From NCBI GenBank assembly GCA_000004695.1, contig CM000150.2:3264001-3328000 (forward strand): DNA of 64,000 bases, given 5' to 3'. The stretch's first letter is position 1, and every line of letters begins with the position of its first letter. Source of the DNA: Dictyostelium discoideum (Eukaryota). Of the stretch, positions 3,307 to 13,152 are shown in pieces. The notes under the pieces were generated by a model. The model saw only the letters and a program-made list of their open reading frames with translations. It ran no database searches and was not told the DNA's origin. Made by a program: the position numbers and the translations under genes.

Positions 3307-3606
3307 ATGAATAAGTTAATTAGTTTATTACTTGTATGCTTAGTTGCTATTGCATTAGTGAATGCTGATTGTGCTATCGATTTTGATAGTGACACAGGTA
3401 AATTTAAATTAAAATAAAAAAAACAAACAAACAAACACTAACTCATTAAAATATTTAGTAAACTCTGTTACATCTAGTGATTGGAGTTGCTTAGCTGCTA
3501 GCAATGATCGTGTTATTATGCAAGTATTTTCTGGTGGTTATGGGTAAATATTATTCTAAAAAAAAAAAAAAACAAAACAATTTTAAAACATATTTCAGTA
3601 CTAATA

Positions 3607-3639
<33 letters not shown>

Positions 3640-4805
3640 ATTAGATATACTTCAGGAATTGCTTCTGCAGTCCAAGGTGCCCAAGCAGCTGGTATTTCTA
3701 CAATTGATCTCTATGCATTCTTATGTAATCAATGGTAGGATAATAATAATAATAATTATTTATTTATTTTTATTTTCTTTTTTCCTAATCTTTGTTTTTT
3801 TATTTTTTTATTTATAGCTCAGGTAATAGTCCATCATCTTCAGCAATCCAAAGTATTGTATCTCAACTTCAAAATGATGGTGTTTCATACAATATGTTAT
3901 GGATTGATGTTGAACAATGTGATGGATGTTGGGGTGATTTAGGTGACAACGCAGCATTTGTTCAAGAAGCCGTTGAAACTGCCCAAAATCTTGGTGTAAG
4001 TTTATAATACTATATTAATGAATATTATAGTGTCGGGGGAACTCAGGAGAGGAATAGAAAGAATTGAGATTTTAAATATTGGTAATGGATTTCAATTAAC
4101 CATAGGATACAATTTTATTATTTTATTATTTTATTATATTATTATTTTATTATTTTATTTTTTAAAGGTTAATGTTGGTGTTTACAGTTCAATTGGTGAA
4201 TGGAGTCAAACTGTAGGTAATTTAAGTGGTTTAGGTGTTGACTTATGGTATGCTCACTATGATAATAATCCATCATTCTCTGATTCAAGCTTTTATGAAT
4301 TTGGTGGTTGGACTTCACCAACTATGAAACAATACGCTGGTAATGGAAATGAGTGTGGTGTTAGCGTTGATATGAATTTCTTTGGTTCTGGAACATGTTC
4401 AGCATCAACTGGTTCAGGTTCAGGTAAATTTTTTTTTCTATTTTTTTTTTTTTTTTTATTCTTTTTTTAAAAAAAAATTACTAACCATAACAACTCTTGG
4501 TAATCAGGCTCATCATCAGGTTCATCATCAGGTTCATCATCAGGTTCATCATCAGGTTCAGGTTCATCATCAGGTTCAGGTTCATCATCTGGTTCATCAT
4601 CAGGTTCAGGTAAATTTTTTTATTTTTATTTTTATTTTTATTTTTATTTTTATTTTTTTTTTTCTTCTTTCGGCAAACGATTACTAACCGCAGCAACTCA
4701 TTACCACCATCAGGATCAGGCTCATCATCATCAGGATCAGGCTCAGGTTCAGGTTCATCATCAGGCTCAGGTTCATCATCAGGATCGGGATCAGGTTCAT
4801 CATAA
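3307..4805 (+). CDS. GH25-family (Entamoeba/Chalaropsis-type) lysozyme with signal peptide and C-terminal Ser/Gly-rich tail; 7 exons (3307..3397, 3458..3542, 3645..3734, 3818..3995, 4168..4423, 4508..4609, 4714..4805)
   Basis: Signal peptide MNKLISLLLVCLVAIALVNA; motifs 'MLWIDVEQCDGCWGD' and 'VDLWYAHYD' typical of GH25 catalytic domain; all introns GTAAAT/GTAAGT/GTAGGA...AG, phases hand-checked; last two exons encode (GSSS/GS)n repeats, stop TAA 4803..4805. Confidence 0.7.
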
Positions 4806-4904
4806 GCAGTTGAATTGGATGTTAAATAAATTTTAAAATTTAAAAAAAAAAAAAAAACAAGGATTATTACCAATTTTTTAAAATTTAAAAAAAGTACATC
4901 TTTG

Positions 4905-5845
4905 AATGTTGAAAAATAAAAAAAAAGTTAAAATATAAACAATATTGAATAGTAATAATTTTACTTTTATTTTTTTTTTATTTCATTATTTTATAATAAT
5001 TATATTTTTTTTTTTTTTATTTTTTTAAAATAAAAAAAAATAAAATAATAGGATAGGATTTGCAATTAAGCAGTCCAAACCTTAAGATTTGAAGTACCAA
5101 TATTTGTAATTGTTAATCTTCCACCACCAAAACTTCTACTGAATTGACCTTTGCTATGAATATCATTATCTTCATCAGGACTTAATCCACATTGAAATCT
5201 TACACGTCCATTTCCACCTCCAACAACTTCAACATTAACTTGAGTAGATCTTGGCCATGCCCATGTTGGAACGCCACTTACTTGACTACCACTATTGATA
5301 TAATACGGACTAATTTAATTTATTTAATGATAAAAAAAATAAACTATTAATATAATAAAAATATTAATTTAATTAAATAATTATAATTATAATTTACCCT
5401 GCCATTTTTTTAAATTTAATAATATTTTAGTTTATTTAAAAAAAAAAAAAATTCTTTATATAAAAAAAATAATTGAAAATGTTTGTTAATTAATTAAATA
5501 ATAATGATAATAATAATAATAAAAAAAAAAAATAAATCTATTTATTTTCATACCAACAAAAAAAAAAATTAAAAAAATAAAATAAAATAAAATATCTTCC
5601 CAAACATGTGGACCTTTGATTTGTGTTTTAAAAAGAAAATGAGTGTTAATGAAATAAAAAAAAAAAAAAAAAAAAACTTGGCTATTTGTTTTTTTATTAT
5701 TTAATTTTATTTAATTGTTACTTTTTTTTTTTTTTTTTTTTAACAATTGAAATAAGGTATATAGTTATAAGATTATATCTCTTCAAATAAATTAACTTTC
5801 AGAGATTATTAAATTTAACAAATTGAATTGAATTAAATTGAACTT
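4905..5845. repeat. Copy A of ~0.93 kb direct segmental duplication (copy B at 8256..9190), >90% identical by eye, contains a complete small gene plus its upstream flank
   Basis: Long collinear identical stretches e.g. 'gttaaaatataaacaatattgaatagtaataatttt', 'ttgcaattaagcagtccaaacctta', 'cttggccatgcccatgttggaacgccacttacttgactaccactattgatataata', 'ataaggtatatagttataagattatatctcttcaaataaattaactttcagagattattaaatttaacaaattgaattgaattaaattgaa' present in both copies. Confidence 0.9.
5066..5405 (-). CDS. Small 88-aa protein, paralog A (exons 5398..5405 and 5066..5309): MAGPYYINSGSQVSGVPTWAWPRSTQVNVEVVGGGNGRVRFQCGLSPDEDNDIHSKGQFSRSFGGGRLTITNIGTSNLKVWTA; family not recognised
   Basis: ATGGCAGG|gtaaatt...aaattag|TCCGTAT; 8-nt first exon then 244-nt exon in phase, TAA stop at 5066..5068; identical architecture in copy B. 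Confidence 0.55.
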
Positions 5846-6164: not shown

Positions 6165-7230
6165 TTAATTTAAATACGGTATTGGAATTAAATCAATTCT
6201 TTGTTTGAGAGCATAAAGGTCAATAGTTAATGGACGAGCATTTGCTGGTGGATTTGGAAAGAATAAAGAGTTTGGTTGAATGGTAATGGTGAAGATTGGA
6301 TTATTTGGTGTATTATTTGGTGTATTATTATTATGTAAAAAACCTGTAATTGGTGTTTGTTGATTTGATAATCTTCTATATTTATTTATATCACGTGCTG
6401 TAAATCCTTCAGAACCAAATGAAATAATTGCTGATGGATTGACAATACTAACACTACCATCAAAAACAACTAAACAAAACTTTTTTAAATTACTAACACC
6501 TAAAGGCCATAATTGAAGTAAAAAAACTATGTTTACATCAGTATCAAAATAATCGGTACATTTGTTGAATGATTGAGTTTTAGTTTGTGCTTTATAATTT
6601 ACTTCAAAGATTAATAAAACACGTCTTGGATATTGACTTGGTACACTTTCATAGCTTCCATCTGGATTATAAACTGTATTCTCATCAATAACAAGATCAG
6701 AACTTCCTGAACCAGTAATATGACCTTGAGCTCTGCAATAAATTGATATTAATTCATTCATTTCAAATACTACTCTTCCATGATATACTGATTCACTTAA
6801 TTTATTAATTATTACTAAACCATTTAATAAAAATGCATTTTTATTATAACTATGATCATTTAAAAAAGTTTTTGAATTTATATTCTTTTGAACTACAAAA
6901 CCTTTATAACCATATTTTAAAAGTTCAATATTCTAAATTTATTATTTAAAAATAAAAATTATTAATAAAATTAATATTTAATTTATTATTATTAATTTTA
7001 ATTAAACAACTTACATTTCTAATAAAAATTATTTTCTCTTCGTTGGGTCCCATTTTTGTAATATCTAAATATCTTAAATTGTTCATTTTGATGACACGAT
7101 GTGAAGGAATTCCATTGACTAAATCATCTTCTACCTTTTCTTTTTCATAATCTGAATTATTTTTTTTAAATTTTGAAAAAAATTTCATTTGTGTATTTGA
7201 TCTATTTTCAAATCCAATAGAAGATATCAT
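6165..7230 (-). CDS. Hypothetical 327-aa protein, 2 exons (7015..7230, 6165..6932); no family recognised
   Basis: ATG at 7230 (MISSIGFENRSNTQMKFF...); donor gtaagt after ...IIFIRN (7014..7009), acceptor aaatttag at 6933/6934; exon 2 continues in phase 0 into ORF 6165..6761 (…MNELISIYCRAQGHITGSGSSDLVIDENTVYNPDGSYESVPSQYPRRVLLIFEV…PYLN*). Confidence 0.55.
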
Positions 7231-10208: not shown

Positions 10209-13152
10209 ATGAGAAAATTAGTAATATTAATTATTTTATCAATTGTGTGTAGTTTATTTATTGGATCGATTGAATCAGTAGATACTAGTAAATTTAAGAC
10301 TTGTAAAGATTCACACTTTTGTAAAAGAAATAGAGTTTCACATGAAGTTGGAGTAATGAATGAAATGAAATCCAAACAAAATTTTAACATTGTAGAAGGT
10401 TCAATTAAATTGGTAAAGCAAGAGAATACCATTTACTTTGATTTACAAGAACAAAATCAAAAGAGTAATCTATTAACAATGAAACTTGAAATCTATGAAG
10501 GAGGTATCGTAAGAATGAGAGCTCAAGAAAAAGAACCATTATTGAATAAGCAACGTTACCAAGTTCAAGATGTTTTATTGGATACAATTAAAACCGTACC
10601 AATTCAATGGAAACAAGAACCTTCAAAACAATCAAACACTTTTTCATTTAAACATGGTGAAAAGGAGTGTTGTTATGTATTAGTACAATTGGTACCATTT
10701 AAATTGGATGTTTACATTATGAATGAATTGGCAATTACAACCAATAGTGATAATCTATTCCATTTCGAACCAATCTCTGATAAACCACAACCATTACCAC
10801 CAAAAGAAAAAAAATCTGAAGAAGAGAATAAAGAAGCTAATCAAGAAGAAGATAATAATAATAATAATAATGATAACAATGAAGAACAACAAGTTAGTAC
10901 AGAAGGTTATTGGGAAGAAAGATTTGGATCACATCAAGATAGTAAACCAAATGGACCAATGTCAATTGGTATGGATTTCACATTTGTTGGTAGTTCACAT
11001 GTTTATGGTATTCCAGAGCATACTACTCGTTTATCATTAAAATCAACCACTGGAAATGGTATCAATGAACAACCATACCGTCTTTACAATTTAGATGTAT
11101 TCGAGTACGAGATTGATAAAACCATGGCATTGTATGGTCATGTTCCATTAATGATCTCTCATGATACTAAAAAAACAGTTGGTGTATTTTGGTTGAATGC
11201 AGCTGAAACATTTGTCGATATCGAGGATGTAACCACACCAGTATCACCATCAAAGAAAACTCATTGGATTAGTGAATCTGGTATTATCGATGTATTCTAT
11301 TTAACTGGTCCAACACCATCAACAATCTTTAAACAATATGCATATCTAACTGGTACAACTGCATTACCACAAATGTTTTCATTGGGTTATCATCAATGTA
11401 AATGGAATTATAAAGTAAGTTACAATAAAAAAAAAAAAAAAAAAAATTATAATAATAATAATAATAATAATAATAATTAATAAAATACTAATATTATTAT
11501 TATTTTTTTTTATTAAAAATTATTAGTCAGAAGATGATGTTAAACAAGTTGATAATGGATTTGATGAAAATCATATTCCATATGATGTAATTTGGTTAGA
11601 TATTGAACATACAGATGGAAAGAGATATTTCACTTGGGATAATAATAATTTCCCAACACCAGCTGATATGCAAAATATTATTGGTGCTAAACATAGAAAG
11701 ATGGTTACAATCGTTGATCCACATATCAAGAGAGATAACAATTATTATGTTCACTCTGAAGCAACTTCAAAAGGTTATTATATAAAGAATAAGGATGGTA
11801 ATGATTATGATGGTTGGTGTTGGCCAGGTTCTTCATCTTATTTGGATTTCACTAATCCAGAGATTCGTAAATGGTGGGCAACTCAATTTGGTTATGATAA
11901 ATACAAAGGTTCAACACCAAATCTTTACATTTGGAATGATATGAATGAACCATCAGTATTCAATGGTCCAGAAGTATCAATGCATAAAGATGCCAAACAT
12001 CATGGTGGTTTCGAACATCGTGACGTTCACAATCTCTATGGTTACTACTATCATATGGCATCGGCCGATGGTTTGGTTCAAAGAAATGCCGATCAAAATG
12101 ACCGTCCATTCGTTTTATCTCGTGCATTCTATGCTGGTTCTCAAAGAATTGGTGCCATTTGGACCGGTGATAACTCTGCCCAATGGTCACATCTCGAAAT
12201 TTCAAATCCAATGCTTTTATCAATGAATTTGGCCGGTATAACATTTAGTGGTGCCGATGTTGGTGGTTTCTTTGGTAATCCAGATGCTGAACTCTTAACT
12301 CGTTGGTATCAAGCTGGTGCATTCCAACCATTTTTTAGAGGTCATGCCCATTTAGATTCACGTCGTCGTGAACCTTGGTTATTCAATGAACCATACACTA
12401 CCATCATTAGAGAGGCAATCGTCAAACGTTACTCTTACCTTCCATTATGGTATACCACTTTCTATCAAAATACACTCAATGGTGCTCCAGTTATGAGACC
12501 ACTTTGGGTTCAATATCCAAAAGAAGCCAATCTCTTTGATGTTGATGATCATTATTTAATTGGTGATTCACTTTTAGTTAAACCAGTCACTCAACAATCT
12601 TGTAAAACTATGAAAGTCCTCTTACCAGGCCAAAGTGTCAATGAAATTTGGTATGATGTTGATACTGAGAAACCAATCAATGCTGGTGTCATCGAAATTG
12701 ATACTCCTTTAGAAAAGATTCCAGTTTATCAACGTGGTGGTTCAATCATTTCAAAGAAAGAAAGAGTTCGTAGAAGTACCTATCAAATGAGAGATGATCC
12801 ATACACTATTCGTATCGCTTTGGACTCTTCAAAATCTGCTCAAGGTCAATTATACATTGATGATGAACACTCTTTTGATTATAAAAAAGGTAAATTCCTC
12901 TACAGACAATTCACTTTCAAAGATAATGTTCTCTCATTTTCTGATGCCTCAAATAAAAGCTCAACCTCTTACAAACCAAATGTTACCATTGAAAAAATCG
13001 TTATCCTTGGTGTTCAAAAACCTCACTCGATCACTTGTAACATTACTGGTAAAGAAAAATTATCATTTGAATATGATTCAACTCTTTCAAAACTAACAAT
13101 CAGAAAACCAGATTTATTAGTTGATACTGATTTTATTATAAAATTAAATTAA
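10209..13152 (+). CDS. modA: Glucosidase II alpha subunit (neutral alpha-glucosidase AB, GH31); 2 exons 10209..11414 and 11527..13152; signal peptide present
   Basis: GH31 signatures 'WNDMNEP' and 'GADVGGF'; near-collinear similarity to GANAB across both exons (e.g. 'DVIWLDIEHTDGKRYFTWD', 'WCWPGSSSYLDFTNPE', 'WYQAGAFQPFFRGHAH', 'PVYQRGGSII'); donor GTAAGT at 11415, acceptor tattag at 11526; symbol modA is by analogy with the Dictyostelium glucosidase II gene. Confidence 0.9.

Follow-up and report, generated by a model that had tools for sequence, protein, structure and literature searches.

How does a single low-complexity protein tail come to be divided among several exons whose introns resemble one another? 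The question is raised by a gene at 3307..4805 (+ strand) of a 64,000-nucleotide (nt) stretch of the Dictyostelium discoideum genome (GCA_000004695.1, contig CM000150.2, positions 3,264,001 to 3,328,000; hereafter the window). As judged from homology, it encodes a signal-peptide-bearing lysozyme of family GH25 (Entamoeba-type) whose C-terminus is a Ser/Gly tail. An earlier note on this DNA had proposed that the tail was built by tandem duplication of a cassette of one intron and one exon. Comparison with related genomes points to a duplicated cassette of this kind, and to a tail that is older than the cassettes which now encode it.

In a hand-spliced and translated model, the gene comprises seven exons and six GT..AG introns, with a spliced coding sequence of 894 nt that encodes 297 amino acids and ends with a TAA stop codon at 4803-4805. 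A gene identical to it (100% identity) is present in locus L010, where it is annotated with a span of 1499 nt and a product of 297 amino acids.

Similarity of the two tail introns

The tail begins within exon 5 (4168..4423), which encodes the last part of the catalytic domain followed by the tail's first GSGSG and whose 3' end reads GGTTCAG|GT. Cassette A consists of intron 5 (4424..4507; 84 nt, phase 1) and exon 6 (4508..4609; 102 nt, 34 Gly/Ser codons), which ends in GGTTCAG|GT like exon 5; cassette B consists of intron 6 (4610..4713; 104 nt, phase 1, with a (TTTTTA)n run at 4617-4663) and exon 7 (4714..4805; 92 nt, Gly/Ser codons up to the stop). The boundaries that the earlier note gave for the last two exons proved exact when the sequence was re-read and spliced by hand, and translation confirmed that these exons encode nothing but Gly and Ser. 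Its description of both as symmetric holds for exon 6, which is phase 1-1, and not for exon 7, which starts in phase 1 but runs to the stop codon.

Introns 5 and 6 share their 5' end, GTAAATTTTTTT, and, near the 3' end, a 20-nt core, ATTACTAACCRYARCAACTC, which reads ATTACTAACCATAACAACTC in cassette A (4477..4496) and ATTACTAACCGCAGCAACTC in cassette B (4680..4699). Both introns hold ATTACTAACC followed, after five bases, by CAACTC. With up to 3 mismatches allowed, the intron-5 20-mer matches only itself and intron 6 on both strands of the 64-kb window, where 0.01 matches are expected. Per genome, the core motif was found exactly twice, with no others in 10 loci (approximately 150 kb) or in the window.

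Similarity in such AT-rich DNA has to be scored with care. An alignment of 4424..4609 with 4610..4805 yields 83% column identity, a high value that is inflated by low complexity. A raw 20-nt match count is likewise non-discriminating, because tracts of A or T bring unrelated introns (1/2 and 3/4) to 17/20 as well. This count, together with the frequency of CTAAY in D. discoideum introns (PMC2483917), is what would favor convergence, in which two unrelated introns look alike through a common GTAAAT donor, T-runs, a CTAAY branch point, and a CAG acceptor. The whole-cassette alignment and raw match counts were dropped as evidence, since poly-A/T and the Ser/Gly repeat score as high for unrelated introns, and a score in which matches are weighted by base rarity was adopted in place of raw counts. 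Under this information-weighted local score, the 3' ends of introns 5 and 6 reach 37.4 bits, against 7.4-20.2 bits for the gene's other 14 intron pairs and a shuffle maximum of 26.3 bits (n = 3000). They still reach 24.0 bits when the branch-point heptamer is masked, and the C-rich CCATAACAACTC that they share lies outside any known splicing signal.

The history of the two cores can be followed in related genomes. Within AX4, the strain of the window, cores A and B differ at three positions, all transitions. The cassette-B core of loci L004 and L009 is ATTATTAACCATAACAACTC, which keeps the cassette-A state ATAACA where AX4 has GCAGCA; the AX4 B core in turn retains TACTAAC where L004 and L009 read TATTAAC. 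With cassette A as the outgroup, the inferred ancestral B core is the same as the A core over 21 nt. This identity of the ancestral cores marks introns 5 and 6 as paralogues and leaves convergence effectively refuted, with next to no probability. We conclude from these sequence comparisons that the two introns, probably with their exons, are tandem paralogues, homologous and in the same phase; the likeness of the intron ends, remarked on earlier, exceeds chance, and the duplicated cassette proposed there is borne out by the unique 20-mer, the 37.4-bit score, and the identical ancestral cores.

The three AX4 transitions are clustered at window positions 4690-4694 (ATAAC to GCAGC, also in the identical L010) and create an AG at 4692-4693, 5-6 nt 3' of the branch-point A. 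This AG was considered as an acceptor and rejected: it lies only 5-6 nt from the branch-point A, neither L004 nor L009 has it, and its use would open a His/Gln-rich frame that is contradicted by the third-position substitutions described below.

The heptamer TACTAAC lies at 4479-4485 in intron 5 and at 4682-4688 in intron 6, 23 and 26 nt 5' of the respective CAG acceptors. Its intact presence in both introns had been thought notable in itself, a view that does not stand. The window contains 6 matches against 5.9 expected and thus no enrichment; the second copy reads TATTAAC in L004 and L009; and branch points of this type are normal for the organism, in which ACTAAT is the commonest hexamer and some 32% of introns carry the WCTAAY consensus (PMC2483917). 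Within the gene, CTAAY is present in four of the six introns and TTAAC in intron 4, 17-68 nt from the acceptor. The heptamer is present twice because the intron was copied, that is, by descent. Two further TACTAAC heptamers, at 6446-6452 and 6491-6497 (+ strand), lie 45 nt apart and antisense to a coding exon of the neighboring gene DDB_G0270600; their spacing is a coincidence unrelated to splicing.

Splicing of both tail introns, as predicted earlier, is backed by comparison of AX4 with L004 and L009. Across these three, exon 6 measures 102, 84, and 72 nt and exon 7 measures 92, 89, and 95 nt, all differences being multiples of 3, whereas the differences in intron 5 (84, 82, and 82 nt) and intron 6 (104, 107, and 216 nt) do not keep to multiples of 3; despite these changes in intron length, exon 7 returns to its Ser/Gly frame every time. 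Between AX4 and L004, eight of nine substitutions in the tail exons fall at codon position 3. Retention of intron 5 would yield a poly-Phe stretch followed by an in-frame stop, and retention of intron 6 would, in AX4, shift exon 7 into the His/Gln frame. Spliced models that take the first suitable AG as acceptor encode 297 and 290 amino acids, equal to the independently annotated product lengths. From the lengths modulo 3 and the third-position substitutions, it follows that both introns must be spliced, as far as comparative evidence can tell. A second in-frame CAG at 4717..4719, 6 nt 3' of the exon-7 acceptor (CAG|GATCAG|G, 4711-4719), is a possible alternative acceptor that, if used, removes one Gly-Ser; the annotated product lengths fit the first CAG.

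Orthologues and the age of the duplication

Four syntenic loci were reached through neighboring genes: L010, L004, L009, and L011. Homologues of the neighbor DDB_G0270600 led straight to L004 and L009, and a member of its cluster led to L010. L004, whose exons are 95-99% identical to those of the window and whose product is annotated with 290 amino acids, has both cassettes, as does L009, annotated with 360 amino acids. L011 is the syntenic orthologue of Dictyostelium firmibasis, with the same neighborhood as in the window (GH31 / Sen15 ... Erf4-like / tubulin). Its exons 1 to 4 are equal in length to those of AX4, which lie at 3307..3397 (91 nt), 3459..3543 (85 nt), 3645..3734 (90 nt), and 3818..3995 (178 nt), so introns 1 to 4 are common to the two species. 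The positions of these four introns are conserved and their lengths vary greatly; intron 3 of D. firmibasis (L011:12163-12426, - strand) measures 263 nt against 83 nt in AX4 and carries a long (ATT)n / (GTT)n expansion.

The tail is organized differently in this species. In D. firmibasis it is encoded by one uninterrupted exon and consists of 66 amino acids of Ser, Gly, and Thr, compared with 63-72 amino acids in the D. discoideum lineages. Compared across these loci, both cassettes are found in three lineages of the D. discoideum complex and none in D. firmibasis. Intron-free tails are also found in more distant homologues: a D. citrinum paralogue (P0001), whose gene has no introns, and proteins of D. 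purpureum (P0002) and H. album (P0003). These three were set aside as orthologues because they are not syntenic and are therefore paralogues or rearranged copies; they are used solely to show intron-free tails. The occurrence of an intron-free tail of similar length in D. firmibasis and the distant homologues indicates that the tail is older than the cassette structure, and so the claim that duplication built it has to be given up. The tail instead changes in length mainly through in-frame slippage of its repeat, as the three lengths of exon 6 show.

Intron positions in dictyostelid GH25 genes are in general not conserved (L001:4001-4864; L002:4001-5439; L003:2040-3284 and 4001-5162). The gene of the D. 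citrinum paralogue is intronless, that of D. purpureum carries three introns at other positions, and H. album, which has two tandem GH25 copies, has one at another position still. The D. purpureum model P0002 seems to splice out an in-frame, non-AT-rich piece of the tail, using a GT and an AG within the repeat; this is probably an artefact of annotation.

At third codon positions, AX4 and D. firmibasis are 76.4% identical. A rough estimate for a duplication that predated the split of D. firmibasis gives about 3 differences in 14 unconstrained positions, with P(0) of approximately 0.06 without gene conversion. The divergence at third positions, set beside the identity of the ancestral cores, argues that the duplication postdates that split. 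We infer that it is the younger event and that at least the second intron is a young, lineage-specific gain. On the other hand, the introns missing from D. firmibasis are precisely the last two at the 3' end, with introns 1 to 4 retained, and this is the pattern to be expected of reverse-transcriptase-mediated loss (PMC3443670). Both tail introns could then predate the split, having been lost in D. firmibasis through 3'-biased loss mediated by complementary DNA, with the cores kept alike by gene conversion. We hold this history to be very improbable. A third-position divergence of approximately 24% contrasts with 0/21 differences between the ancestral cores; the cores have diverged independently since the lineages split (three changes in AX4, one in L004 and L009), which argues against ongoing conversion; and the distant homologues also have intron-free tails.

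Intron 6 has continued to vary among strains. In strain ACTFIR (assembly GCA_054859385.1; L009:10775-10990, - strand, orthologous to window 4610-4713), it is 216 nt long, open, and in frame. A CACCAT microsatellite between its branch point and acceptor has 21 units in ACTFIR, 1 in AX4, and 3 in L004, and the distance from branch point to acceptor across strains is 26, 41, or 143 nt, the last in L009. The 360-amino-acid product annotated for L009 corresponds to read-through of intron 6, with a Phe-rich segment and (SP)n, and appears to be an annotation artefact. The case illustrates a pitfall for gene prediction, in that an expanded intron which happened to be open and in frame in one strain was annotated as coding.

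Probable origin within a coding repeat

The DNA of the tail is a microsatellite-like repeat of GGTTCA and TCATCA units, with AG|GT at each GGTTCA junction. Both donors, at the ends of exons 5 and 6, read TCAGGTTCAG|GTAAATTTTTTT, and exons 6 and 7 both start with, or nearly with, GGC TCA TCA TCA. The cassette pair very probably arose by tandem duplication of an intron and a Ser/Gly exon inside this repeat. Most likely, one event of unequal recombination, in register, or of replication slippage took place within the tail repeat, in which a GGTTCAG just 5' of an existing tail intron would have been joined to another GGTTCAG lying more 3' in the tail exon. The unit thereby duplicated, the intron together with its Ser/Gly exon, would have measured about 190 bp. 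The outcome would be a new phase 1-1 exon, 3n long and ending in a GGTTCAG|GTAAAT donor, and a new functional intron supplied with all its signals. Since the duplication, tail length has been set mainly by in-frame slippage and has stayed at 63-72 amino acids, near the 66 of D. firmibasis.

The informative similarity between the cassettes is confined to the intron, and the likeness of the exons could stem from the repeat alone. This suits a different event, in which only the intron was copied, by reverse splicing and reverse transcription or by ectopic repair, into another CAG|G of the same repeat and the exon was not duplicated. In its favor, too, such a CAG|G proto-splice site is available at every GGTTCA junction, and the tail is no longer than the intron-free tail of D. 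firmibasis. We nevertheless consider copying of the intron alone improbable. The copies are adjacent, in tandem, and in the same orientation and phase, and the repeat on either side of them is of just the type in which unequal recombination is promoted; both of the exons that follow open with GGC TCA TCA TCA, which is otherwise unusual; neither the window nor the 10 loci contain a third copy; and documented intron transposition is very rare (PMC3443670).

Several observations weigh against duplication of a whole cassette in the recent past. The T-rich middles of introns 5 and 6 and the last 11-14 nt before their acceptors cannot be aligned with each other. The similarity of the exons, which includes a block of 38/40, is of low complexity and is by itself no proof that the exon was copied with the intron. 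None of the compared genomes has exactly one tail intron, D. firmibasis having zero; the first intron may thus have been gained in D. discoideum or removed from D. firmibasis by 3'-biased loss, and a gain followed by a duplication is a putative order of events. Gene conversion could give an old duplication a young look.

Duplication of a cassette within the repeat may be compared with known routes to new introns. One such route is internal tandem duplication of part of a gene, by which an intron already present is copied (Gao and Lynch 2009, cited in PMC3443670); tandem exon duplication in general is akin to it. The locus resembles it in having an adjacent, same-orientation copy of an exon and an intron, in keeping its frame by means of a symmetric 3n exon, and in a new intron that inherits its splice signals; it differs in that the unit lies inside a coding microsatellite, which is itself the recombination substrate, and in that the protein is no longer than that of an intron-free relative. 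In a second model, introns are gained by tandem duplication of an exonic segment that contains AGGT (the Rogers model; Hellsten et al. 2011; and a case in the RdRp gene of potato, PMC4974935). Here too splice sites are created or reused at a duplicated AG|GT, and the tail repeat has AGGT at each GGTTCA junction, but in that model the new intron consists of duplicated exon sequence, whereas here an existing intron was duplicated. Introns 5 and 6 are T-rich, with GC contents of 15% and 23%, unlike the GGTTCA/TCATCA coding repeat, and their origin is therefore not that of the classical AGGT model. Introners, which are transposon-like introns (PMC9860276), likewise place near-identical introns at more than one site. 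The two copies described here are adjacent and within one gene, with no further copy in the window (at up to 3 mismatches) or in the 10 loci. Neither terminal repeats nor target-site duplications were seen at introns 5 and 6 by eye, no inverted-repeat search having been made.

The enzyme, its neighborhood, and the significance of the locus

The identification of the product as a GH25 lysozyme, made earlier from the sequence, is borne out by profile comparison. The single sequence scores 22.8 bits against Pfam PF01183, below the cut-off of 27, with an E-value of 1.2e-4 and with profile positions 12-179 of 180 covered; among its homologues at 30-68% identity, most have been assigned to PF01183 in precomputed annotation. 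A profile built from 31 homologues matches the solved GH25 muramidases 1JFX (cellosyl; E = 3.5e-12), 4KRU (6.6e-11), 6ZMV (4.3e-9), and 2X8R (3.3e-8). Residues D25, D119, E121, and D216 are invariant across the 31 aligned sequences, and the catalytic N-terminal Asp and the Asp-x-Glu motif, which is Asp-Val-Glu (D119, E121) at 3906-3914 in exon 4, align with GIDVS and LDIE of 1JFX. All of the protein homologues retrieved are at most 68% identical, and the AX4 protein and its annotated 290- and 360-amino-acid orthologues lie outside that set, so the lack of closer protein matches means nothing. Codons 1-20 (3307-3366), MNKLISLLLVCLVAIALVNA, are signal-peptide-like when judged by eye, with a hydrophobic core followed by VNA|D. 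Muramidase activity and secretion are predicted from this N-terminus and from the literature on relatives.

At least 22 putative lysozymes are recognized in D. discoideum, including the Entamoeba-type CF45-1 and CF50, with measured lysozyme activity (2026 review, PMC13399256). These secreted counting-factor components belong to the same GH25 family as the window gene and have lysozyme activity (PMC13399256). The window gene may itself be one of the named genes. Both CF50 and CF45-1 have been described as having Ser/Gly-rich regions. Within the 31-homologue alignment, long Ser/Gly-rich C-terminal tails are confined to the three dictyostelid members; a few unaligned environmental homologues have Ser/Thr- or Pro/Lys-rich tails, which differ from Ser/Gly in composition.

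The tail had earlier been called a linker, a misnomer for a C-terminal segment that nothing follows. It is probably a disordered, heavily glycosylated appendage. In Dictyostelium, lysosomal cysteine proteinases bear N-acetylglucosamine-1-phosphate (GlcNAc-1-P) on the serines of Ser-rich domains (Ord et al. 1997 and Mehta et al. 1996, cited in PMC4920372 and PMC6994554). As in those enzymes (cprG and proteinase-1), a Ser-rich, low-complexity domain is carried by a hydrolase of the secretory or endolysosomal pathway of the same organism; in the lysozyme, by contrast, the domain is C-terminal and almost purely Gly/Ser. GlcNAc-1-P is thus a candidate modification of the tail serines, at least as likely as mucin-type O-glycosylation.

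The region around the gene is extremely AT-rich, with GC content rising only in short blocks, which fits Dictyostelium. An open reading frame at 6165-6761 (- strand) is 100% identical to DDB_G0270600 of D. discoideum AX4, and two other neighbors are exact matches to DDB_G0269664 and DDB_G0269666, which places the window on chromosome 1 of AX4. DDB_G0270600 (window 6165-7230, - strand) is a member of a multi-copy family. Copies of it, 58-91% identical or in the same 90% cluster, are found at non-syntenic positions in other genomes of the D. discoideum complex and in D. citrinum (L005-L008), whereas the syntenic locus of D. firmibasis has no copy. The 90% cluster also includes two AX4 proteins of 83 amino acids (DDB_G0270604 and DDB_G0295751). 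A gene for a GH31 glucosidase II alpha-subunit occupies 10209-12300 (+ strand), with an intron at approximately 11416-11526; its tblastn likeness to the lysozyme (E = 0.029) is not homology. The weak tblastn match at 11306-11664, considered as a second GH25 gene of the window, belongs to this GH31 gene and is no paralogue.

The locus adds little to lysozyme biology itself. Its interest lies in the origin of introns, where few young gains are well documented and have a mechanism that can be identified (PMC4974935, PMC3443670). Here the event can be dated: D. firmibasis lacks the cassettes, at least three lineages of the D. discoideum complex have them, and both copies are still recognizable. 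We know of no such well-documented young intron gain in Dictyostelium. The case is a clean, young instance of an already known route to intron gain, tandem duplication that copies an intron, within a coding microsatellite. It also illustrates that a low-complexity tail can hold its length while the structure of the gene that encodes it is remodeled.

A broader reading can be put forward tentatively, and with rather less than even confidence: both tail introns may be recent gains of the D. discoideum lineage, and the (GGTTCA)n repeat, which offers an AG|GT in every unit, may be a hotspot at which introns are born and then amplified with an exon by unequal recombination. The organism permits direct tests of splicing, and, if this reading is true, its natural strains would form an allelic series in which the birth of introns and their definition could be studied in a tractable model.

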